DNA of 64,000 bases from positions 6,716 through 70,715 of the IMG/VR virus record IMGVR_UViG_3300009709_000299, one strand, 5' to 3'. The DNA comes from a virus. Its lineage: Duplodnaviria; Caudoviricetes. The notes below the pieces were generated by a model, which did not search any database, was not told the DNA's origin, and saw only the letters and a program-made list of their open reading frames with translations. The translations under genes and the position numbers were made by a program. Shown here in pieces: positions 1-58,192 of the stretch; within the stretch, counting starts at the first letter, position 1; each line of letters starts with the position of its first letter.

Positions 1-93
1 ATTTAGGTCTTCAATAAGTATTTTTTGAGGTAAAAAATTAAAATTTTTAAAATCAGAATCTAACAATTTATCTTGATTTTTTTGACTTCCCAT
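1..93 (-). CDS. N-terminal fragment of a probable neck/tail-completion protein (runs off the window edge)
   Basis: Read by hand: ATG at 93, MGSQKNQDKLLDSDFKNFNFLPQKILIEDLN, open to position 1. Preceded by the late motif ATATTTAT (104-111) and follows two neck genes. Function inferred from gene order only. Confidence 0.45.
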   Translation of the reverse strand, partial: MGSQKNQDKLLDSDFKNFNFLPQKILIEDLN

Positions 94-165
94 CTTTTTA
101 TAGATAAATATAAAAATATTACTTTATTTTCAAATTATTTTTCTTATTTTTGTTTTGGCTTTAAC

Positions 166-384
166 TTTGCTCTGCCTTTCTTCTATGGGGGTTGTAAACG
201 GCAACAAAGTGTTTGCACTAAGGGGAGAAAATTCTTCTATTGGTTTAACAAAAAAAGCAACCCTAGCTGTAATTTATTACAGCAACTTCAAATGAAGATT
301 AATCATTTGGGGGGAGGGGGGGTTGTTTCTTTTTGTTTCCCTAAAAATAGAAAAAATAATATTTAGCATACTGCTAAATATTAT
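166..384. other. Hairpin-rich, relatively GC-rich non-coding segment (candidate structured RNA or cis element)
   Basis: GCTGTAAT/ATTACAGC 266-283; CAAATGA/TCATTTG 289-309; ATAATATTTAGCA/TGCTAAATATTAT 356-384; GGGTTG (189-194 and 320-325) complementary to CAACCC (258-263); G6AG7 run 309-322. Confidence 0.35.
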
Positions 385-399
385 ATAAAAAAATTTTTT

Positions 400-990
400 T
401 TAAACTCCATTGAATACATCTCTATCAATTTCAAATGCTTTTATTGTCAAAAATGCTCTTCTATCACCAGCATAAGAAAATTGATTAGATATTTGTGAAT
501 ATCCATCATCCCAAACTTCATAAAATTGACCTTTATGAGATAAAAAGTCTCCTTGTTTTATATATATATTTAAATCATTACCATCTCTCTCTAAGAGACC
601 TAGTTCTTCTAAATGACTTAAATACATAGAAGCTTTAAATTCTCCCATGCCTTTTTTAGTAACTCCTTTAGGAGTTCTATATGTAGGACTTTCTACTTCT
701 ACATTTATTCTTCCAAATACTTCAATAGGTTGAAGTGTCTCTTTTACTATTGCTTCTCCATATAGTGCATGAGTTCTAGTTTTTTTAAGATCTACTCTAT
801 AAAGTATAAAGCTTTCTTGAAGAATATTATTGGTTAATTCTTTACCGACTTGATCAAAGAATCTAGCTTCTGCTTCACCAAAAAAAAGTTTTATCCCTTT
901 TTTGTCAGCTAAATTATCTTCTGCTTCTTTTGGTCTCTTTATACCTTTTAAATCATCAAAAGATGAATTATTGTTGTTTATATTACTCAT
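400..990 (-). CDS. Head closure/neck protein (T4 gp14-like)
   Basis: 196 aa; motifs LYRVDLKKTRTHALYGEA and GDFLSHKGQFYEV resemble head-closure proteins; directly downstream of the gp13-like gene. Confidence 0.6.
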   Translation of the reverse strand: MSNINNNNSSFDDLKGIKRPKEAEDNLADKKGIKLFFGEAEARFFDQVGKELTNNILQESFILYRVDLKKTRTHALYGEAIVKETLQPIEVFGRINVEVESPTYRTPKGVTKKGMGEFKASMYLSHLEELGLLERDGNDLNIYIKQGDFLSHKGQFYEVWDDGYSQISNQFSYAGDRRAFLTIKAFEIDRDVFNGV

Positions 991-1005
991 ATTATTTATA
1001 TTTTA

Positions 1006-2163
1006 TTATCCAAAATAAATTCCTAGCGGAATTGTTTGTAATGTTTTATTTACACTTTCTTGCATAGAAGCTCTATCTTCAAGTAATTTTTGTAAATTTA
1101 AAGCATCTAAGGTTGTTTTTAATTGTTCTAAATAAAGTTCTTTATCAGCTCTTCCATTAGTTATTAAATCTGCACTATTCATTGTTACTTCTGCATCTGG
1201 AATTGGTAATACACCAGAGAACTTTCCTCTAATTCCAAGTCCTAATAATTCTTTAGCTAAAGCTTGTGCATATTTTTTTACCCATGTTTTAGCAACATCA
1301 TTTAATAATGAATAATTTAAATTATATAATGGTGCATCAGCTGGACCTGATACTAATCCATTTCCTTGTGTTTGACCTGTTATTCCAATAGAATTTAATC
1401 CTAATTCAGGATTCCCAGCTACATAATTATCAGGTCTTAAAAAAAATCTGTAAAATACAGTTCCTGGTGTTCCATAATAATTTGCTATTCCATTAAAATT
1501 AGTTGTATTTCCAGAGGCATTTGGAATAGGATATAATCTTATTGTTCTATATCCAGGAGGTCCTTTAAAAACTGCATAAGAATATTCATATCCTCTAACT
1601 TTATTTCTTTGTTTTGCTGCAGATGATGTTAATACAGTATCAAATACAGGTAATACACTATATAAGTTATATCCTGCAAATGAAGCACCAAATTCAGTAT
1701 AAGCGAAATTAGCACCATCAAAACCATACATATTTACAAAGTTTGGAGTATACCATAAAACATCTTGTATTTCATGAGTATCTGGAATATTATAATTTTG
1801 AGTTCCACTACTTAAAGTAATACCTGTAGTAAATAATTCTCTTGTTGTACTTACACCACCACCAATCATTTCAGAAGCAGTATTGGTCATACTCTTTTCA
1901 AAATATAAACTATTTGTAATATATTTTAATGTAAAATCATTAGTGGTTGGTAAACCTAACATTTCTGCTAATTTGTTTTCCATAGCCCAATTATTGATAA
2001 ACGAAGAATATTCTTCAATAGCTTCACATATACATTCTTCTATTTGTTCATCAACTAATTCAACTCCCATTATAGGAGCGCCTAACTTTCTTCTAATTCT
2101 ATTAAAAATTTGTGTTTTTTCATAAATGGTAACACCTGTGAGACATCCTGCTTCGCAACTCAT
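1006..2163 (-). CDS. Neck/head-tail adaptor protein (T4 gp13-like)
   Basis: 385 aa; IRRKLGAPIMGVELVDEQIEECI at the N-terminus and WVKKYAQALAKELLG...RGKFSG at the C-terminus resemble gp13-type neck proteins; position downstream of the capsid gene. Confidence 0.7.
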   Translation of the reverse strand: MSCEAGCLTGVTIYEKTQIFNRIRRKLGAPIMGVELVDEQIEECICEAIEEYSSFINNWAMENKLAEMLGLPTTNDFTLKYITNSLYFEKSMTNTASEMIGGGVSTTRELFTTGITLSSGTQNYNIPDTHEIQDVLWYTPNFVNMYGFDGANFAYTEFGASFAGYNLYSVLPVFDTVLTSSAAKQRNKVRGYEYSYAVFKGPPGYRTIRLYPIPNASGNTTNFNGIANYYGTPGTVFYRFFLRPDNYVAGNPELGLNSIGITGQTQGNGLVSGPADAPLYNLNYSLLNDVAKTWVKKYAQALAKELLGLGIRGKFSGVLPIPDAEVTMNSADLITNGRADKELYLEQLKTTLDALNLQKLLEDRASMQESVNKTLQTIPLGIYFG

Positions 2164-2167
2164 ATGA

Positions 2168-2425
2168 TTATTGTATATAGGTTAAATAAGAAATTGTGGG
2201 AGCTTTTCTGAATCCAATAAATGTTCCACTATTAACAGTTGTTTGAGAAATAACACAATCAACTTTTTGACCTGCTACCATTGTTAGTGTTGCTGAACCG
2301 CCTGCAATCGCACATATTTTAATTGATCCATCAGCTACACAATATACTTCATGTATTTGTGTACTACCAGTGAAATTTTGCGTTGAAGTCAACGTAACAA
2401 TTTCCATATTTGCATTAATATTCAT
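2168..2425 (-). CDS. Small beta-rich virion protein, possible head decoration protein
   Basis: 85 aa, Thr/Gly/Val-rich; own late motif at 2442-2450; lies between capsid and neck genes. Function is inference. Confidence 0.4.
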   Translation of the reverse strand: MNINANMEIVTLTSTQNFTGSTQIHEVYCVADGSIKICAIAGGSATLTMVAGQKVDCVISQTTVNSGTFIGFRKAPTISYLTYIQ

Positions 2426-2463
2426 AATAGAAGAATTTTATTATAAATATTAAATAAAAAAGG

Positions 2464-4137
2464 TTATTTAATTAATAATTCGTATCTTATTTTACCACAA
2501 TCCCATATACGATCATATCCAGCTTCTTTCATTATTTCCCATTCTGTTTTTTCATTTGAATATATATCTGGAAATTTTATTTTTAAAGATTTTTTGCCAA
2601 ATTGAAATTTATGTAATCGTTTATGTCGAAAAATTTTTGGATTATAATATTTATAATCAGGAGCAAGTATTTTTGAAATTTTAAATCCTATATTAGTATA
2701 TAAGTTTTTTTCTTTATTAATTGTCCATCTTATATCAGCAAAGGATATTATTTTTGAAGGATGGTGTTCATTTGTAAAATGTTTTATAATTTTTCCTGCT
2801 ATACCAACGACTTGGTAATTAATATCAGTAGCAAATCTTTTTAGTTCAAATATTCCTTCTTTTTTACCTGAATTCATACTTCTTTTATCATCAAATGTCA
2901 TAACTGCTATTAATTTATTTTCATAAAAGGCTCCATAAAAAAATGAAGAATTATCATTTCCCTGAATATGAAAATTTTCTAAAAAAGATTCTTTTTGTTG
3001 AAATGATATCGATTTTATTTCACATTTTCTAGCATATATTTTCTTTAGATTATGATTTAAACCAAAAATATGTTTTAATTTACTTTTTACTATTTCTTGT
3101 TTTATTTCCCATTCATCTTCAAATATATGTATTAGACCATAACCTTTTTCATTCATTAATTTAGTTTTATTTAAATGAAACATTCCACCTCTACCAAATG
3201 TTTCTGTATGGTATCTATTACCATTATATTCAATTCCTATTTTTTTATCATGACAAATAATATCTATTTCTGTACCATTTAGTAATTTTTTATCACTTGA
3301 TATTATTTTTATATTAAAATTTTCTAAAAAATTTTTTATATTTATTTCAGCTTTGGAAACAAAAGTATGATTCATAACTTTATTTAAGTCTGACATTTTT
3401 TCAGACATAAATTTTCTAGTATCTTCTGTAATAGTTTTACCATAATTATATTTATAATCTTCTAAAGAAATATTATGTTTTTTTAGATGTGTTCCAGAAA
3501 TTTTTAAAAATTTTTCTCCACAAATTTTACATATAACAGAATTATGAGTAGCTGCATTATTTATATATTCTTGTTTTTTTATTTTATCAATTTCTGTTTT
3601 AAATAAAAAACTTTTTTCGGGATATTGTTTAATATATTTTTTAATATCAATATTATGTTCTTTTTTTAAATGTGTAGTAAACCATCCACTTTTATTATCT
3701 AAATCTATAGTAGTCCAATCACAAAAATCACATTTAAATTTTTCTCTTGTATCTATTTTTAATTCACCTATATCAAAAAAATCAGCATACCATTTTTTTC
3801 CATGAATTGACTCATATTTTCTTCTTTTAAATGCAGTTTCTATTTTAAAATCAGGATATTCTTTTTTTATATGATTTGTAATAATACCAGATTTATTATG
3901 AATATCTTCAAAAATTAAATTTGTTTTTTTACATATAAGTGTATAATCATCATTAATTTGTTTTTTTATACTAATTGTATTATCATTAAAAACATAATTT
4001 CCACTTTGATATAATATTCTTTCTATAACAGAAGTAGAACTATTTATTTCTTTAGCAATTACTCTATTACTTTTACCATTTTGATGCAATACAATTATTG
4101 TATTTATTTCTTCTTGTGTTAATTCTTTTTTTTTCAT
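2464..4137 (-). mobile_element. Free-standing homing endonuclease (HTH + Zn-finger-like repeats + Vsr/DUF559-like PD-(D/E)xK nuclease + Hef-like C-terminal domain)
   Basis: 557 aa; N-terminal HTH; CxxC..H motifs (CDFC...HLKKEH, CKIC...HLKKH); EIDI...GIEYNGNRYH...LIHIFEDEW nuclease core; YARKCEIK...FLENFHIQG C-terminal domain; inserted just after the capsid terminator. Confidence 0.7.
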
Positions 4138-5979: not shown

Positions 5980-7554
5980 TTAATCTTCGGCTTTTCTAAT
6001 ACCAGAAAGAATTTGTCTTCTTCTTTTTTCTTCTTCTTCTTTTAAAAGCTTAGTTTCATTACCTTCATATAAAGGTTTTGAAGAATTTGCTACATTTATT
6101 GTATTTGACTTTATCTTGTTATTTGTTGATTCTTTAATTAGTATGTTATTATCTTTTACAATTTTTTGATAAATTTTCTGGGCTTCTTTTACAGAAGAAG
6201 CTTTATCTAAAGATTCATTTATAGCTAATTTTTCTGTACTAGATAAACCACCATTCAAAAATAATTTGTTAGCAAGAGCTAGTTTTGCATTAAATGTTTG
6301 CATTTCATTAATTGATAATCTAAGCTCTACAAAAGAATTTTCAAATTCCTTTATATCCCTTCTTAAACTATTGTTTTCCTCTTTAAGCTCATCCAATTTG
6401 GATTCATATTGAGCTTTTATATTTTCTTCTATATTAATTCTACTTGTTTCACCTTGACCAATTGGAAATCTAGAGCTTTTTCCTTTTGAAGAAACTGAAA
6501 ATGATACCCCTTTCATTTCATCTATTTCATTTTCATCAGAAGATTCTTCATCAGAATCAATAATTTCTACATCTTCATCATTAGAATTATCATTATCTAT
6601 ATCTCCAAAAAAACTATCATTTGATGAATTTCTTATGGATAGATTATCAATATCATCTTGATCAACAACAGCTAATTCATCATAATCAAAATCTGATTCT
6701 TGCAAATCATCTACAATTACAGATGTATCATCATCTTCATTAGAATTATCACAATTACATTCTACAGTTTGACCATCAGATATTTCAAATTCTATTTCAT
6801 CATTATCATCATCACTATCATCAGAATCTAAATCTATTGTTAGATCATCTAAATCTGTATCATCATTATCATTTTGTGAATCGATAACTTCTTCCATTAT
6901 ATCTTCATTATTATAATCCATATATTCTTCTTGTATTGGTTGTTGATTTTGTTGAGGCACTGCATTTTGTTGAGCAGGTACTTGTTGATTATTATTTTGG
7001 GTAGGTGCAGGAGTAGAATCTACATTGTCATCATCTACAATTGTTACTTCTCCTTCTGCTGTTCCACTATTAGTAGTACCACCTTCTAACTTTCTTTCAA
7101 TGTCATTTAATTTATTCATTACTAATACAAATGGATTTTCGATATTAGCTTCAGCAGCTTGTTCTTCTTCATTTATATTAGTTATTTCAAATAAAATATC
7201 TTCTTCATTTATTTCATTATTAGAAGATTCTATATCATTAGATGATGTTGGATTTTCTGTAAAATTTTCTTGTCCTGTTGAAGAGGTTGTATCTGTATTA
7301 GTAATATTATTATTTGTTTCAATTGTTATTTTATTACCATCTTTATCAACATTTATAGAATCATCATCTACAATAACAGTAGCATCACCAGACTCTATAT
7401 TAATTATAGCTTCTTCAAGTGTTTTTTGAACTATTTCATCAAGTTGGGGCTGTATTTTTTTTTGCATTTGCTTTAAAGCTTCATTTTGAGCAAATTTTTT
7501 TATTTCTTCAAAATCAGCTTGTGCTTCTTTAATTACAGACTTTTTATTTGACAT
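5980..7554 (-). CDS. Prohead core/scaffolding protein (gp22-like role)
   Basis: 524 aa, very acidic (D/E/N-rich) centre and coiled-coil C-terminus (LDELKEENNSL...FNAKLALANKLF); between protease and capsid genes. Confidence 0.75.
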   Translation of the reverse strand: MSNKKSVIKEAQADFEEIKKFAQNEALKQMQKKIQPQLDEIVQKTLEEAIINIESGDATVIVDDDSINVDKDGNKITIETNNNITNTDTTSSTGQENFTENPTSSNDIESSNNEINEEDILFEITNINEEEQAAEANIENPFVLVMNKLNDIERKLEGGTTNSGTAEGEVTIVDDDNVDSTPAPTQNNNQQVPAQQNAVPQQNQQPIQEEYMDYNNEDIMEEVIDSQNDNDDTDLDDLTIDLDSDDSDDDNDEIEFEISDGQTVECNCDNSNEDDDTSVIVDDLQESDFDYDELAVVDQDDIDNLSIRNSSNDSFFGDIDNDNSNDEDVEIIDSDEESSDENEIDEMKGVSFSVSSKGKSSRFPIGQGETSRINIEENIKAQYESKLDELKEENNSLRRDIKEFENSFVELRLSINEMQTFNAKLALANKLFLNGGLSSTEKLAINESLDKASSVKEAQKIYQKIVKDNNILIKESTNNKIKSNTINVANSSKPLYEGNETKLLKEEEEKRRRQILSGIRKAED

Positions 7555-49807: not shown

Positions 49808-50476
49808 ATGTCAAGAAATTATATTATATTAGAAAAAAATAATAATTTGTTATTTACAGGAATAACTAGTTCGTTAAGTTTAAATGATAATTATTATTCT
49901 TATGATCAATCTGGTTTAAATAAAGGAATTGTTACAGAATTTAATGTAAAACAATTTTTAAATGATTCATCTAACGAAAAAATAGCAATTGATTTTTTTA
50001 ATTATTTAAACAATAATACATCTTCTTCAGAATTATATGAAATAAATAATGATAACAAAAAGTTATCAGATTTATTTAAAAAATATTATAATACTTCTAT
50101 ATTATTAGGAAGAGAAAGCTCGATGTCTTTTGTAGATGAAAGTTTAATATTTACTAGTGGTATTACTATAAATAATATTAATTATGCTTTAACTGCTGCT
50201 ACTATTGTAGAAAATATAATGACAGGAACTCCTGCCATGATTATATCATCTACAAAAAGATTGAATGATATAAAAGAAGAACTAACAACCTATACTATAG
50301 AACCTAGTTATTATATTGATCTTCTACTAAACTTTACTATTGGAGAAATAGCACAAATTAAATTTGCTGATTTTTTATTAGATGAGCAAATTATAATTAG
50401 TGGAAAAACAGTAAACTTGAAACAAGGATTTGTAAATTTAAATATTTCCACTAATCCAAATGAATTTTGGTATTAA
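49808..50476 (+). CDS. Hypothetical virion protein
   Basis: 222 aa; last gene of the baseplate operon; stop overlaps a convergent stop. Confidence 0.6.
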   Translation: MSRNYIILEKNNNLLFTGITSSLSLNDNYYSYDQSGLNKGIVTEFNVKQFLNDSSNEKIAIDFFNYLNNNTSSSELYEINNDNKKLSDLFKKYYNTSILLGRESSMSFVDESLIFTSGITINNINYALTAATIVENIMTGTPAMIISSTKRLNDIKEELTTYTIEPSYYIDLLLNFTIGEIAQIKFADFLLDEQIIISGKTVNLKQGFVNLNISTNPNEFWY

Positions 50477-51252
50477 TTATTTAAACAAATCCATAAATTT
50501 TTATATAAAACTTTAGCTTTATTTTCAGATAATCCTGACATTTGACCATCATTTAATTCAACTAATATCCATTCTCCATTTTCTTTTTGTGCAATATCTA
50601 CTACATAAAAATTAGTATATTTTTTTGCTATAGAAGCTATTTTTTTAGCAAAATTTAATGCTTTTTCACTTAATTTATGATCAGTTTTTTCAGCTATCCC
50701 CCAATAATAAGCATATGTTAAAATGCTTTCTTGGTAAAAGAAAAAACGCCACTCATTAGTAAATCGCATTCCATTTATTCCAATTTCATAAGTTATTAGT
50801 GGTTCATATTCTCTATAAATAACACCTTGCTGACAAATTAAAGGATCTTGCATTAGTTTCCATCCTATTTCTATAGCTTGTTTTTTATTTTCAGCAAACA
50901 TCATAGTATCCCACATTTGTTTTTTAGAGTTTGTCTTGCCTTTTACAACAAATTTACCCTCTGGTAAAATATTTGGTTGAAAATATGTTTTAAATGTATA
51001 TTGTTCTAGTGCTTCATACCATTGAAAATCTGCTATCCATTTATATTGTTCATAAGAATTTATGAGTTTTCCTCCCAGGTTATTTACATCCACCTCTAAT
51101 TCTTTATAATATGGTAAAACAGAATATCTTCCTATAATTAAATCATCTTTTTGAATTTCAGAACGATAAGTTATTGTTGGAAATATATTTTTAACTATTT
51201 GAAGCTCTTCTTCATTGGTTTGATCTGGTCTAAATAATATGGTTGGTTTCAT
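50473..51252 (-). CDS. ATP-grasp domain protein (R2K/DUF4343-like)
   Basis: KLINSYEQ, FVVKG, YREYEP, NEWRFFF, VVDIAQ...WILVELNDGQMSGL. Confidence 0.8.
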   Translation of the reverse strand: MKPTILFRPDQTNEEELQIVKNIFPTITYRSEIQKDDLIIGRYSVLPYYKELEVDVNNLGGKLINSYEQYKWIADFQWYEALEQYTFKTYFQPNILPEGKFVVKGKTNSKKQMWDTMMFAENKKQAIEIGWKLMQDPLICQQGVIYREYEPLITYEIGINGMRFTNEWRFFFYQESILTYAYYWGIAEKTDHKLSEKALNFAKKIASIAKKYTNFYVVDIAQKENGEWILVELNDGQMSGLSENKAKVLYKNLWICLNN

Positions 51253-52684: not shown

Positions 52685-52783
52685 TATTATGAATATTTTA
52701 AAACCTAAAAATTAACTGAAATAAAATCGGGTTTATTAATTTGTTTTCTATTTATAGTAGAAATAAATTTAAACCACATAAAC

Positions 52784-54871
52784 ATGAGTATCTCAGGAAC
52801 ACCTTTTTTAGGACAAGATTCAACAAATTCAATTATCCCAATGTCAGGCAATAATATTGCATCAGGATTTTATTCTTTTGTTGCAGGGGGCAAAAATAAT
52901 AAAACAAATGGTAATTATGCACACGCAGAAGGATTTGGTACTTTTGCAAAAGAAATGTATTCTCATGCAGAAGGCTATCAAACATTATCATCTGGTGTAT
53001 ATTCACATACAGAAGGAGGATTAACATCAGCCACAACTATTGGTGCGCATGCAGAAGGAGCTCAAACACTAGCATCAGGATTTCATTCTCATGCAGAAGG
53101 ATTAACTACAATAGCATCTGGAGCAAGATCACATGCAGAAGGACAATCCACAAAAGCTACTGGGCAAGCTTCACACTCTGAAGGTATTGGAGCTTATAGT
53201 ATTGGTTTAGCTTCACATGCAGAAGGCTTTAATTCTATAGCACTAGGACAATTTTCACATGCAGAAGGTTTAGCTTCAACTGCTATTACTACTGCAAGTC
53301 ATGCAGAGGGATATAGAACTTTATCATCTGGTGTTTTTGCGCATGTAGAAGGATTTATGTCATTATCATCTGGATATATTTCACACGCAGAAGGTAGTAG
53401 TACTTTAGCATCTGGTACATATTCTCATGCAGAAGGCCTAGAAACATCAGCTACTACAAATGGTTCACATACAGAAGGATTTAGAACATTATCTTCTGGG
53501 TATTTTTCTCATGCAGAAGGAATAAGGTCTATAGCTTCTGGCTTTGTATCTCACTCAGAAGGTTTACAGACATCAGCTACAACAACTGCTTCACATGCAG
53601 AAGGAAATCAAACCTTAGCATCTGGTGTATATTCACATGCAGAAGGTTATAAAACCTTAGCTATAGGTGAAGCTGCTCATGTTGGTGGTATTTTTTCTAT
53701 AGCTAGTGGTAATTCTTCATTTGTTCACTCATCAAATTCTGCTACTTTATCCAATAACTCTTCTATTTTGGGTGGATTTGCAAATAGATTAAATATTTCT
53801 GCAACAGGCTCTACTATTCTTGGTGGTTCTAATATTACTGGTTCATCATCTGATACAGTATATGCTCCAAATCTAACAGCCACTTCAATTTCATCAAATA
53901 TTATTTTTTCAGGTGTAACTGATCTCTCTTTTTTATTTGCTCCAATTTCTTCTATTCCAAAATTTTGTTTTTCTGGAAATGGAAGTAATGGCTCTATAAA
54001 CACAATAAGTGGCTTTAATATTTCTTCGGGATTATTTTCAATAGTAGCAGGAGGTACAGGAAATACAGCTTCTGGTGATTTTTCAGTTGTTATAGGAGGA
54101 ACTAAAAACATAGCTTCTGGTACACTTACTAATGCACAAGGTTATGGAACTGTGTCATCAGGTTTTATGTCTACTACCAATGGTTATTTTACAAAATCTA
54201 CTGATATTTGTTCTCATGCACATGGTTTAATGTGTGAAGCTACTTCTATTGGTTCACATGCTGGTGGATCAGTTTCTATTGCTGCTGGACCACAATCATT
54301 TGTTCACTCTTATAATTCTACTGTTTTATCAAGTAATAGTTCAATACTTGGTGGTATGAATAATAAATTGAATAGTTCTGCATCAAATTCTATTATATTA
54401 GGAGGTTCTAACATTACTGGTTCATCATCTAATACAGTATATATTCCAAATTTAACAGCAACTTCTAATGTATATGCAAATAAATTTTATTCTGGAAATA
54501 CTGAATTAAGTTCAATTTTTTCTAAAGTAAATATAGGGGTTAAAACTGCTATGACATTGAATTCAGGATATTCTAGTATTGCTGGTAATACAGTATCTTA
54601 TAGGAAAGACTCTCTTGGAAATGTGTATTTAATTGGCGGTTTTGTAGTAGGAACTACATCTACTAATGAATTTGCTACATTACCATCTGGATTTAGACCA
54701 TCTACTCCAAGAGAATTTGCAGTTGCAGGAGCTGCTAGTACTAATGGAGGAACTTTTATATGTGTAGTTAATACAAATGGTCAGTGTCAAATAGTAAATT
54801 TAAATGGTTCTAATTTAACCAGTGGAAAAGTTACATATATTGATAATGTTTTTTTTAATATTAATGATTAA
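52784..54871 (+). CDS. Tail fibre/adhesin A with YadA-head-like 14-aa HxEG repeats
   Basis: 695 aa; 18 HxEG units with 14-residue period; C-terminal YRKD...VYLIGG...FATLPSGFRP fibre-tip domain; late motif at 52748-52756. Confidence 0.82.
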   Translation: MSISGTPFLGQDSTNSIIPMSGNNIASGFYSFVAGGKNNKTNGNYAHAEGFGTFAKEMYSHAEGYQTLSSGVYSHTEGGLTSATTIGAHAEGAQTLASGFHSHAEGLTTIASGARSHAEGQSTKATGQASHSEGIGAYSIGLASHAEGFNSIALGQFSHAEGLASTAITTASHAEGYRTLSSGVFAHVEGFMSLSSGYISHAEGSSTLASGTYSHAEGLETSATTNGSHTEGFRTLSSGYFSHAEGIRSIASGFVSHSEGLQTSATTTASHAEGNQTLASGVYSHAEGYKTLAIGEAAHVGGIFSIASGNSSFVHSSNSATLSNNSSILGGFANRLNISATGSTILGGSNITGSSSDTVYAPNLTATSISSNIIFSGVTDLSFLFAPISSIPKFCFSGNGSNGSINTISGFNISSGLFSIVAGGTGNTASGDFSVVIGGTKNIASGTLTNAQGYGTVSSGFMSTTNGYFTKSTDICSHAHGLMCEATSIGSHAGGSVSIAAGPQSFVHSYNSTVLSSNSSILGGMNNKLNSSASNSIILGGSNITGSSSNTVYIPNLTATSNVYANKFYSGNTELSSIFSKVNIGVKTAMTLNSGYSSIAGNTVSYRKDSLGNVYLIGGFVVGTTSTNEFATLPSGFRPSTPREFAVAGAASTNGGTFICVVNTNGQCQIVNLNGSNLTSGKVTYIDNVFFNIND
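54664..54728 (+). repeat. Left copy of a 65-bp inverted repeat (64/65 identical to 55066-55130)
   Basis: TAATGAATTTGCTACATTACCATCTGGATTTAGACCATCTACTCCAA (47 bp exact) + one mismatch + AGAATTTGCAGTTGCAG. Confidence 0.9.
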
Positions 54872-54880
54872 TAAAAAAAA

Positions 54881-54932
54881 ATATGATTAAAAAAAAAAGG
54901 TGATTGTTAATCACCTTTTTTTTTAATCATAT
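54881..54932. terminator. Bidirectional terminator between the convergent fibre genes
   Basis: ATATGATT(A10)GGTGATT - GTT - AATCACC(T9)AATCATAT; near-perfect arms of 25 and 24 nt. Confidence 0.85.
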
Positions 54933-56440
54933 AAATAGAAAGATACACCATCTACATAAACATTATTTCCATTATCTAATACTGATCCATCACCTTTAAC
55001 TATTTGAACAGAACCTGTAGAGTTTACAATACAAATAAAAAAGCCACCATTTGATCCAGCTGCTGCTGCAACTGCAAATTCTTTTGGAGTAGATGGTCTA
55101 AATCCAGATGGTAATGTAGCAAATTCATTATTTCCACCTATTGATCCTACAGTTAATATTCCTTTAAAATGTATATATCCCATAGAATCTTTTCTATAAG
55201 AAGGACTTCCACCATATCCACTCGCTAAACTAAATGCTGTTGTTGTTCCTGAACTATAGCTTGTTTGTGATATTATTGTTGCTAAATTTGTTGTTCCAGA
55301 AAAAAAATTTTGTGCATATATACTTGTTCTTGCTGTGAAATTTACACCATAAATCATATCTGCTGTATTTCCTGTAATATTAGAGCCACCTAAAATTGTT
55401 GACCCTGTAGCAGCAGAATTTAATCTATTGCCAAAACCGCCAATAATAGAAGCATTATTTGCTAATACATTAGAATTAGATGCATGTATGAATGATGCAT
55501 TACCAGAAGATGTTGAACCTGAACCACCCGCATGAGAACCATAACCAGAAGCTGAATTTAATACCCCTTCTGCATGTGAATTTATTCCAGAAGCTGTAGT
55601 TAAATATCCTTCTGCATGAGTCCTTGTTCCAGAAGCTATTGTTAAACGACCTTCTGCATGTGAATATATACCAGATGCTAAAGTACTACTACCTTCTGCA
55701 TGCGAAGCAGTTGTTGTAGCAGTTGTTCCAACTCCTTCTGCATGAGAACCTTGACCATTTGATCTTGTAGATTGTCCTTCTGCATGAGATCTAGGACCAG
55801 ATGCTATAGTTGTTAATCCTTCTGCATGAGAGTGTAATCCAGATGCTAATGTTTGGTTTCCTTCTGCATGTGCACCAGTAGTTGTGGCTGATGTTAATCC
55901 CCCTTCTGTATGTGAATATGCTCCAGATGATATTGTTTGATAACCTTCTGCATGAGAACCATATGATCCTGTTGCTCTAGTAGAATGTCCTTCTGCATGT
56001 GATCTTGCTCCAGATGCTATAGTATTATAGCCTTCTGTATGTGATTGCAATCCAGATGATAATGTATTTCTTCCTTCAGAATGGCTTCCAATAGTGGTAG
56101 CACTAGTTCTAAAACCAAATGATTGAGAAAAATTACCACTTGCTGTATTTCCTGTTCCACCTCCAATAAAAGAATATAATCCAGAAGCTATATTTGATCC
56201 ATTTATGGGTTTTATAGCACCAGTAAATGAATTTCCTGAAAATGGTGAAGATACTAAACTAATTGGAGCAAATAAAAAAGATAATTCAGTTGTTCCTGAG
56301 TATATAGTATTTCCACTTAATATTGATCCATATATTGTATTTGCTGTAACAACATTAAATGGTGCTAAACCACTAAAAGCTTTATTTAAAGCAACTCTAC
56401 CAATTTCAAAATTATCATTAAATCCTAAAAGTTCGCTCAT
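54923..56440 (-). CDS. Tail fibre/adhesin B, paralogue of fibre A
   Basis: 505 aa; 13 HxEG units; same type of C-terminal tip domain; late motif at 56451-56459. Confidence 0.82.
   Translation of the reverse strand: MSELLGFNDNFEIGRVALNKAFSGLAPFNVVTANTIYGSILSGNTIYSGTTELSFLFAPISLVSSPFSGNSFTGAIKPINGSNIASGLYSFIGGGTGNTASGNFSQSFGFRTSATTIGSHSEGRNTLSSGLQSHTEGYNTIASGARSHAEGHSTRATGSYGSHAEGYQTISSGAYSHTEGGLTSATTTGAHAEGNQTLASGLHSHAEGLTTIASGPRSHAEGQSTRSNGQGSHAEGVGTTATTTASHAEGSSTLASGIYSHAEGRLTIASGTRTHAEGYLTTASGINSHAEGVLNSASGYGSHAGGSGSTSSGNASFIHASNSNVLANNASIIGGFGNRLNSAATGSTILGGSNITGNTADMIYGVNFTARTSIYAQNFFSGTTNLATIISQTSYSSGTTTAFSLASGYGGSPSYRKDSMGYIHFKGILTVGSIGGNNEFATLPSGFRPSTPKEFAVAAAAGSNGGFFICIVNSTGSVQIVKGDGSVLDNGNNVYVDGVSFYLYD
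55066..55130 (-). repeat. Right copy of the 65-bp inverted repeat
   Basis: Reverse complement of 54664-54728 with one mismatch at 55083. Confidence 0.9.
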
Positions 56441-56488
56441 ATTTTTTGTTTATAAATATTTTAAAAAAAATAACCTATTTGTTTTTTA

Positions 56489-58192
56489 TTAAGTTAACTT
56501 GTATCCCATTTTATCAGTTGCTTTATCAGCCCAAGTATCATGTGTAGAAGACCATAATACTATTATTCTATATCCTAAATCTTTATCTTCTTTTAAAGAA
56601 AATGTTTGATAGGATGTATCATAATCCCTATATTCTGTAATAAGTGTATATGTACCATAAGTTAATCCATTAAATGCATAATTTCCTTGTGTATCTGAAC
56701 TAATTGATATTTTTGTACTATCTGGATAAATTAAAGTTAATAAACATTGTGAAATTACACTTCCTGATACTTGTCCTGATAAACTATAAAAACCTGGATT
56801 TGATAATGCTAAATTAGGAGGATTTACAAATGGAGCAATCACTGGATCATATGGAGAATCTATTTGAGTAAATACAAATGTTGTAGCTGGTGAATTTTGT
56901 GTTGTTGCACTATAAGAATCTGTATATGTTACAATTCTTTGATCTACACCAAATATGTTTGTTATTTTTTTTACATTTCCTATTCTATATACAAAATTAG
57001 TAGCATCTGCACGTATTGATACACCTGCCTCTTGAATATTAGAATCATTAGATAATTTTTTTTCTATTTCATAAATTACAATTTCATCTGAATATGAAAA
57101 TCCTGTTCCATAAGAAATTTCTATTTGAGAATAATCTCCATCTATTATATTAGAATAATAAAATTTAGGTGAAAATGTATCTAATTGACCTTGTACATAA
57201 GGTTCTTCAATTTTAGGTTTATTTGGTATTTGAAAATAAGTGAAAAATCTACCACCAATTAAAAAATCAGAGAAAGTGCCAGCAGAAATTAAACTATCAT
57301 GTGGTGTTTCAAAAAAAGTATCTGCACTATAAACAGGAAAATCAGAGACATTAAAATCATTAATATTATTTGTATAATTATATGATGTTATATTATAAAT
57401 TTGTCCATAATCATAATATGATGAATATACTAATTGTTCATTTAACATGAAATCACTAAATTCTTGTGATTGTATTTCTGTATATATTTTGTTACTGGAT
57501 ATATAATTATTAGAAATTGGAAAATTAAATTTAAATATGGTTTTAACAAAATATTGAGATTTGTCTTCAAACAATTTGTTTGTTAAATTTCCACTTGTCA
57601 TTCCTGTACTTTTTACAAATACAGGAAATATAAGATCATAATATGGAATTGTGATTGATGAATAAGGTATTTCTAACTCATAAAATGGATTTTCTAATAA
57701 ATTTTGTATATCATCCTTTGATGACAAATCTATTTTAGCAGCATTTTCTGTTGTTGCTGTATTTATTGTGTTAGTTATTTTTGTCGTAATAGTTTTCTCA
57801 CCATTTACAATTATAGTTTCTTCTTGAATTTGTTGATTAACTATATTTTTTTGATCTGTATTAATTTTAGTAAAATCAGGTTGATAATTTTTATAAGTTG
57901 TATAATCTAATTTATACACTCTAAATAATACAGATGTATTTGCTGATATTGAAAATGTATTAGCAGAAAAGAAATATCTTATAAATGGATTATTTAAATT
58001 AGTAAATGTTGCTTGTGGATCTTGTCCATAATAATTTAAAGTTCCACCTGTAGCACTATATATTGGTATTTCAAAATTATTAATAAGTCTATTACTTTGA
58101 TAATAATTTACATTTCTATTAGAGAAAAATGATTGTGCAACATCATTATAATTTCCACTTACTTTTCTATATTCTATTTGTTTTTGATCCAT
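56489..58192 (-). CDS. Virion protein with a C-terminal carboxypeptidase-regulatory-like domain
   Basis: 567 aa; YSLSGQVSG...SSDTQGNYAFNGLTYGTYTLITEY. Confidence 0.6.
   Translation of the reverse strand: MDQKQIEYRKVSGNYNDVAQSFFSNRNVNYYQSNRLINNFEIPIYSATGGTLNYYGQDPQATFTNLNNPFIRYFFSANTFSISANTSVLFRVYKLDYTTYKNYQPDFTKINTDQKNIVNQQIQEETIIVNGEKTITTKITNTINTATTENAAKIDLSSKDDIQNLLENPFYELEIPYSSITIPYYDLIFPVFVKSTGMTSGNLTNKLFEDKSQYFVKTIFKFNFPISNNYISSNKIYTEIQSQEFSDFMLNEQLVYSSYYDYGQIYNITSYNYTNNINDFNVSDFPVYSADTFFETPHDSLISAGTFSDFLIGGRFFTYFQIPNKPKIEEPYVQGQLDTFSPKFYYSNIIDGDYSQIEISYGTGFSYSDEIVIYEIEKKLSNDSNIQEAGVSIRADATNFVYRIGNVKKITNIFGVDQRIVTYTDSYSATTQNSPATTFVFTQIDSPYDPVIAPFVNPPNLALSNPGFYSLSGQVSGSVISQCLLTLIYPDSTKISISSDTQGNYAFNGLTYGTYTLITEYRDYDTSYQTFSLKEDKDLGYRIIVLWSSTHDTWADKATDKMGYKLT

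Follow-up and report, generated by a model that had tools for sequence, protein, structure and literature searches.

Two convergent tail-fibre genes of a huge uncultured phage (Duplodnaviria; Caudoviricetes), here called fibre A and fibre B, share a 65-bp block that lies in inverted orientation in the two genes, and we consider it probable that this block is a short gene-conversion tract left by general homologous recombination between old inverted paralogues. The genes are encoded on a 70,715-bp IMG/VR virus record (IMGVR_UViG_3300009709_000299; 25% G+C); a 64-kb window, the stretch of 64,000 nucleotides from position 6,716 to position 70,715, forms part of it, and coordinates are those of the window unless the contig is named. 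The contig lacks end repeats, encodes baseplate-wedge homologues and has a CheckV completeness of about 22%, the complete genome being estimated at about 320 kb. A preliminary description of the locus had read the block as a shufflon-like device for swapping the receptor-binding tips of the two fibres, and had offered recombinase-driven inversion, homologous inversion and recent gene conversion as mechanisms. The last of these three is the one that we favour: there is zero synonymous divergence within the patch, its flanks are saturated, and the block is incongruent with its flanks when orthologues are compared. On this reading the event is ordinary recombination between paralogues. The elements of the locus are as follows.

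52784-54871, plus strand: fibre A, an open reading frame (ORF) of 695 amino acids
54923-56440, minus strand: fibre B, an ORF of 505 amino acids, paralogue of A
54881-54932, both strands: terminator-like bidirectional palindrome, near-perfect, each arm about 25 bp long, A- and T-runs present
54664-54728, plus strand: block copy in A, 65 bp, 21 codons, spanning the TLPSGFRP motif
55066-55130, minus strand: block copy in B, inverted relative to the A copy
54729-55065, no strand assigned: interior of 337 bp, holding the last 47 codons and stop of both A and B, plus the hairpin

Fibres A (plus strand) and B (minus strand) converge and meet at one shared terminator hairpin, as the preliminary description had it, and both the ORFs and the palindrome were reproduced here. 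The hairpin has fold energies of -23.4 and -22.9 kcal/mol on the two strands (z-scores of -8.6 and -9.7 relative to shuffled sequences), and its right arm overlaps the final three codons of B. Alignment of 54664-54728 with the reverse complement of 55066-55130 gives 64/65 identical positions, synonymous positions included: the first 47 nt match exactly, position 54711 differs (G/A; Arg/Lys) and the remaining 17 nt match again; these are the only two copies of the block in 70.7 kb. Each copy lies 143 nt from its gene end, with the A and B tails aligning gap-free from their stop codons, and recomputation returned the same values for this distance and for the length of the interior as had been given before. 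After the block, the A and B tails are 60% identical in nucleotide sequence and 49% in protein sequence, and their synonymous sites are saturated.

An identical repeat in a metagenomic contig could in principle be a collapsed or chimeric product of assembly, and the only sequencing run found to contain the locus is probably the contig's own source. The read evidence comes from k=31 contigs of that run, a moss metagenome that is the sole public run with the locus. This independent assembly recovers all of the junction k-mers, and the 47-nt node (54664-54710) has a depth of 31 compared with 16.5-18 for its flanks. Because the node has about twice the flank depth, the reads contain two identical copies, which confirms that the block is present twice. 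The arms outside the block are 60-73% identical and hence do not form a false palindrome. We regard an assembly artefact as extremely unlikely.

The codons used within the block support a recent exchange. Expected codon sharing at identical residues was computed from the codon usage of the contig, and recomputed with that of the fibre genes. In the block all 20 of the 20 identical residues use the same codon, as compared with an expectation of 11.7-12.7 (P of about 7e-6 under genome usage, or 4e-5 when the usage of the fibre genes is applied). In the rest of the aligned C-terminal parts codon sharing is no higher than chance: 12/23 identical residues in the tail after the block (expected 14.2), 5/8 in the part of the head that precedes it (expected 5.0) and 16/31 in the neck (expected 17.3). 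Because sharing is at chance level in these parts, the synonymous sites of A and B are saturated except in the block, and the identity of the block exceeds what constraint or chance would give. We thus see the pattern by which gene conversion is recognized, a near-identical tract with diverged sequence on both sides, and synonymous sites that are identical inside it and saturated outside.

The alternative that the block reflects constraint alone, through strong purifying selection on a protein motif or on a DNA or RNA element combined with AT-biased codons, draws on two facts, namely that the motif in the block is the most conserved one of its family and that a G+C content of 25% narrows the choice of codons. 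However, codon bias is already allowed for in the calculation, and the probability that all 20 codons are the same is still about 1e-5. The preliminary description had itself proposed asking whether the block is equally conserved in unlinked homologues, and it is not. Two orthologues from other samples were compared at the protein level, P0002 (425 amino acids), a B-like protein with 64% identity to B across the final 150 amino acids (BLASTP), and P0008, an 85-amino-acid fragment that is A-like, 62% identical to A, and identical at 21 of the 23 residues just past the block. Each of them differs from the A/B block at 8/21 residues. Pure constraint is thereby largely refuted, and we consider it highly improbable.

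The same two orthologues show a second signature. At the protein level both flanks of the block pair A with P0008 and B with P0002, and the block alone pairs A with B; the tract thus groups the paralogues and the flanks group each paralogue with its orthologue, as gene conversion predicts. Because A and B share the pairing of body and tail with their orthologues, the assembled orientation of the interior appears to be the parental one.

A second, weaker patch of similarity between A and B lies within the repeats of the fibre shafts.

52960-53191, plus strand: second, weaker A/B patch in the SHAEG repeats of A; inverted repeat I1, 232 nt, 86% identical
55727-55958, minus strand: its partner in B, inverted repeat I1

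The patch contains perfectly matching stretches of 35 and 22 nt, and 48/64 identical residues use the same codon (expected 35.5). An earlier hand count of about 21 mismatches in 193 nt, mostly at third positions, for the next-best shared block (52961-53153 and 55765-55957) proved exact, with 21 mismatches, 13 of them at third positions. Because this second, older patch of raised identity exists, the sequences indicate that exchange between A and B has happened more than once.

To see what an inversion between the two block copies would exchange, the position of the block within the fibre has to be considered. In fibre A, YadA-head-like SHAEG repeats of 14 residues (42 nt) are combined with two neck modules and a C-terminal head, and the shafts of both A and B are built of 42-nt SHAEG repeats of the YadA-head type (A matches PF05658, YadA_head, at 2.1e-6; A and B match phrog_25468 at 1.8e-52 and 1.5e-39 respectively). 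The two heads were placed as follows, that of B from an AlphaFold2 model built on a 30-sequence alignment and that of A by alignment to the B model.

54551-54868, plus strand: head of A, about 105 amino acids, a single beta-sandwich with limits inferred from the alignment with the B model
54926-55243, minus strand: head of B, residues ~400-505

The B model forms one compact beta-sandwich, with a block-averaged predicted local distance difference test (pLDDT) score above 90 over most of model residues 41-150. Foldseek matches it to 6r5w (Listeria PSA gp15) and to 3da0, 2bse and 2fsd (TP901-1-, p2- and bIL170-type heads) with a probability of 1.0, template-modelling (TM) scores of 0.45-0.55 and E values of 8e-5 to 1e-3, and the modelled C-terminal domain thus resembles the siphophage-type receptor-binding head fold. 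A search of 1.8 billion proteins gave 653 relatives of the domain at E<=1e-3, often several per protein; no Pfam family covers it in a Pfam search. The best-conserved element of the domain is the motif TLPxG(Y/F)RP, with its L, P, G, R and P conserved at 90% or more among 30 family members. In the model the block comprises a strand (84-87), the motif loop and the start of the next strand (98-106), and is therefore located mid-domain. What follows the block is, according to the model, the C-terminal half of one compact head and not a separate tip module. The preliminary proposal that inversion would swap the tips of the fibres thus stands in part: the last 47 codons would be exchanged with both reading frames and the terminator kept, but since the block is mid-domain, the products would be chimeric half-heads and there would be no swap of a whole tip.

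Both genes are also complete, each with its own start and a promoter-like motif upstream.

52749-52756, plus strand: promoter-like motif TATTTATA of A, 28-35 nt upstream of the A start
56451-56458, minus strand: promoter-like motif TATTTATA of B, 11-18 nt upstream of the B start

TATTTAT is present within 60 nt upstream of 14/54 genes, as compared with about 3 expected from its density in the genome, and TATTTAT(A) is thus a candidate promoter element of this phage group. Because A and B each have their own ATG and upstream TATTTATA motif, they are probably expressed independently, and both tails would therefore be made in either orientation. A Shine-Dalgarno-like sequence is not evident upstream of A or B. 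Other TATTTAT(A) sites lie upstream of 51803, 58194/60587 and 60746, and the T4 late-promoter word TATAAATA is not enriched upstream of genes (1 observed and 1.4 expected).

In-frame inverted repeats within fibre genes are a hallmark of invertase and shufflon systems, and such repeats are present here. A programmed site-specific switch of the Gin/Cin/Hin or Rci/Rin type would use the block as its crossover site, with the invertase encoded by the host or in the 78% of the genome that lies beyond this incomplete contig (22% by CheckV). We searched the whole 70.7-kb contig, together with its syntenic relative L069 (388,594 bp and rated 100% complete), which was reached via a neighbouring 797-amino-acid protein, for serine recombinases (PF00239, E<=1), tyrosine recombinases (PF00589) and reverse transcriptases (PF00078). 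No serine or tyrosine recombinase was matched in either sequence, which extends to the contig and to a complete relative the earlier remark that no invertase is visible in the window. To our knowledge the invertase gene of known inversion systems adjoins the invertible segment, but there is none beside A and B, where the products of the genes within 10 kb on either side include baseplate- or fibre-type proteins, an ATP-grasp protein and proteins without a family match. Nor does the block look like a crossover site: we found no dyad-symmetric core in its 65 bp (the best internal palindrome is 5 bp), and with two copies in 70.7 kb the locus lacks the three or more repeat copies around several cassettes that characterize a shufflon. 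A constant part with promoterless cassettes was likewise not found at the locus, where both ORFs are complete, start at an ATG of their own and are preceded by a TATTTATA motif, and the crossover would fall in mid-domain. A programmed shufflon-like or Gin/Cin-like switch, as first suggested, is not supported, and we consider it very unlikely. A diversity-generating retroelement was rejected separately; no PF00078 match was found in the contig or in L069, and the two repeats, which are inverted, show a single mismatch.

Inversion does not necessarily depend on a dedicated enzyme. The phage's own homologous recombination could repeatedly cross over within the 47 bp of perfect identity, which is a length usable by general recombination systems, and so flip the 337-bp interior without loss of frame; parental and chimeric half-head fibres would then coexist in the population, and repeated heteroduplex repair would keep the block identical by concerted evolution. 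The geometry is exact, with equal 143-nt distances and with the frames and terminator preserved, the complete relative has a RecA/UvsX-type gene, and by analogy of fold with the p2 and TP901-1 heads (PMC3893620) the exchanged half could matter for binding. In those heads the sugar-binding residues (His232/Asp234/Trp244/Arg256 and His133/Asp135/Phe145/Arg155) are in the last ~30 residues (PMC3893620); corresponding His/Asp/Arg sugar-binding residues are not evident in the sequence here, and the tail of B contains no His. However, since both genes look independently expressed, it is unclear what would be gained by switching, and a mid-domain crossover would yield chimeric beta-sandwiches from halves that are only about 50% identical. 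The flanks of A and B also show the parental pairings with P0008 and P0002, and the 70-kb contig is unbroken through the repeat, which weakly suggests one dominant orientation. The k=31 contigs break at the repeat, and we saw no variant k-mers, although contigs drop rare variants and a crossover within the 47 nt yields no new k-mers, so that the two orientations look alike. On balance, we regard recurrent inversion without a recombinase as possible but unlikely. It is a rather doubtful proposition that the 47-bp identity serves as an in-frame flip site of this kind, at which the binding halves of co-expressed heads are shuffled to give four fibre forms from two genes, with recurrent exchange keeping the block identical.

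We therefore return to gene conversion. The observations are the patch with its statistics, its incongruence with the orthologues, its place inside a domain and the lack of matches to the recombinase families that were sought; the following scenario goes further and proposes an enzyme, a timing and a donor relationship. A and B would be old paralogues, the 3' parts of which arose by an ancient inverted duplication around the shared terminator and then diverged to synonymous saturation. More recently, a short non-reciprocal homologous exchange would have copied about 65 bp between them. The tract coincides with the best-conserved motif of the head, where DNA homology would have been highest and a heteroduplex could form, and where the copied residues would be tolerated, so that the patch survived. 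General homologous recombination is the likely agent, because the nearest complete relative encodes a RecA/UvsX-type recombinase (a RecA-family ORF of 355 amino acids, above the Pfam cut-off) and the phages are T4-like. The inverted 47-bp perfect identity would then be a by-product, from which rare inversions may follow.

Several points weigh against this interpretation. The incongruence depends on only two orthologues, one of them an 85-amino-acid fragment, and on proteins alone. The donor is not assignable, since within the block A and B appear equally distant from the orthologues. Although no other 65-nt window on any A/B diagonal scores as high as the block, its lead is only moderate, with 64/65 identities compared with 60/65 for the runner-up, which belongs to the second patch, in the repeat region. 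The contig represents about 22% of the genome, and so an invertase may be located in the remaining ~78%. Finally, a conversion patch and recurrent reciprocal exchange are compatible and not mutually exclusive.

Several known systems can be compared with the locus. The T4-type tail-fibre adhesin genes gp37/gp38 are shuffled by recombination at conserved motifs (Tetart et al. 1996, 1998, as cited in PMC3157838). Here too the setting is T4-like, homology-driven exchange occurs at the most conserved receptor-binding motif between diverged specificity segments, and a dedicated recombinase is not needed. The T-even exchanges differ in that they take place between phages and swap the specificity segments, whereas here two paralogues in one genome, in inverted orientation, share a 65-bp conversion patch; the head is also a beta-sandwich, unlike the glycine-rich core of gp38. 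As in the Mu G segment (Gin), the P1 C segment (Cin), e14 (Pin) and p15B (Min), in-frame inverted repeats are present in fibre genes and inversion would exchange C-terminal ends. In those systems, however, one constant part is joined to promoterless alternative ends, whereas here there are two complete convergent genes, an exchange point inside a domain, and no invertase gene or dyad site was found. The R64 shufflon (Rci) and the Rin shufflons of Bifidobacterium prophages (PMC6109161) resemble the locus in that the C-terminal ends of adhesins vary by inversion between short repeats within coding sequence, but they combine several cassettes with many short sites and have a tyrosine recombinase next to them, whereas the A/B locus has two copies, no recombinase that we could find and no silent cassettes. 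The C-terminal ~105 residues share the fold of the PSA gp15 (6r5w), p2 and TP901-1 heads and likewise form a domain at the C-terminal end of a trimeric fibre; they differ from these in having only 15-20% sequence identity and in capping a shaft of YadA-head-like repeats, here that of a jumbo myovirus.

The locus provides a clean and well-bounded case in which the receptor-binding genes of huge uncultured phages have exchanged sequence within one genome, and the exchange has struck the best-conserved motif of a widespread head domain, for which Pfam still lacks a family. It also illustrates that an inversion switch should not be called on the sole ground that fibre genes carry an in-frame inverted repeat. 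Should both orientations be present in reads, the locus would join the few hints of invertase-free fibre diversification by inversion in large phages.

The remaining observations concern the build of the fibres, their distribution and the genes around them. A ~60-residue N-terminal segment is common to B, P0002, P0003, P0004 and the fibre of L069 by alignment, and A is without it. Fibre A is bipartite, with the neck module (ILGGSNITG...NLTATS) present twice as a direct repeat (53717-53886 and 54296-54465; 131/170 nt identical), and its second half resembles the whole of B minus the first ~40 residues; such a two-unit build recurs in P0004, which comes from another sample. At the end of A (54863-54900) the gene terminates in ATGATTAA followed by an A-run, and about 18 nt further on there is a second ATGATTAA with an A-run, which supplies the left arm of the terminator stem, base-pairing there with the final codons of B. 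The two copies of ATGATTAA look like a small tandem duplication that shifted the stop of A off the hairpin, and the arrangement is consistent with the heads of A and B having arisen by inverted duplication around the hairpin.

Many relatives contain tandem copies of the head, with three to six per protein (P0006, P0007, P0010 and P0012 among others), and P0007 also has an N-terminal trypsin domain. Among cultured phages there are only distant matches to the head, in phages of Geobacillus, Exiguobacterium and Curtobacterium, and there is weak repeat similarity to the tail spikes of Flavobacterium phages. No close relative with the head or the block was found among viral contigs (with P0002, an alignment and a degenerate block pattern as queries), metagenome contigs or genome contigs. 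A further 65 loci retrieved with fibres A and B have the SHAEG repeats as their sole likeness, with no match to the head.

The corresponding locus of L069 has the 797-amino-acid gene, a 567-amino-acid gene and one fibre with a B-type N-terminus and a different C-terminus, converging on a homologue of the 293-amino-acid gene; fibre A is absent at this syntenic position. A 222-amino-acid ORF (49808-50476) matches only the N-terminal part of a 709-amino-acid L069 protein (49808-51252 of the window compared with 17116-19245 of L069), and it is followed, on the opposite strand, by an R2K-clade ATP-grasp gene (50473-51252; PF14243, 4e-23), with no such ORF at that place in L069. Because of the extra fibre A and these differences from L069, the locus appears to mark a hot spot of gene turnover. 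The 567-amino-acid protein encoded just upstream of B (56489-58192, minus strand) has a C-terminal CarboxypepD_reg match of 27.9 bits, below the Pfam cut-off of 32.3, and may be a fibre-associated structural protein, since it is conserved beside the fibre in the relative. Outside the window and upstream of its position 1, a third fibre-like ORF of more than 911 amino acids (contig 1-2735, minus strand) has its C-terminus cut by the contig end, and its N-terminal part repeats the 'YSG.T.L..(I/L)FAP' motif of A and B.

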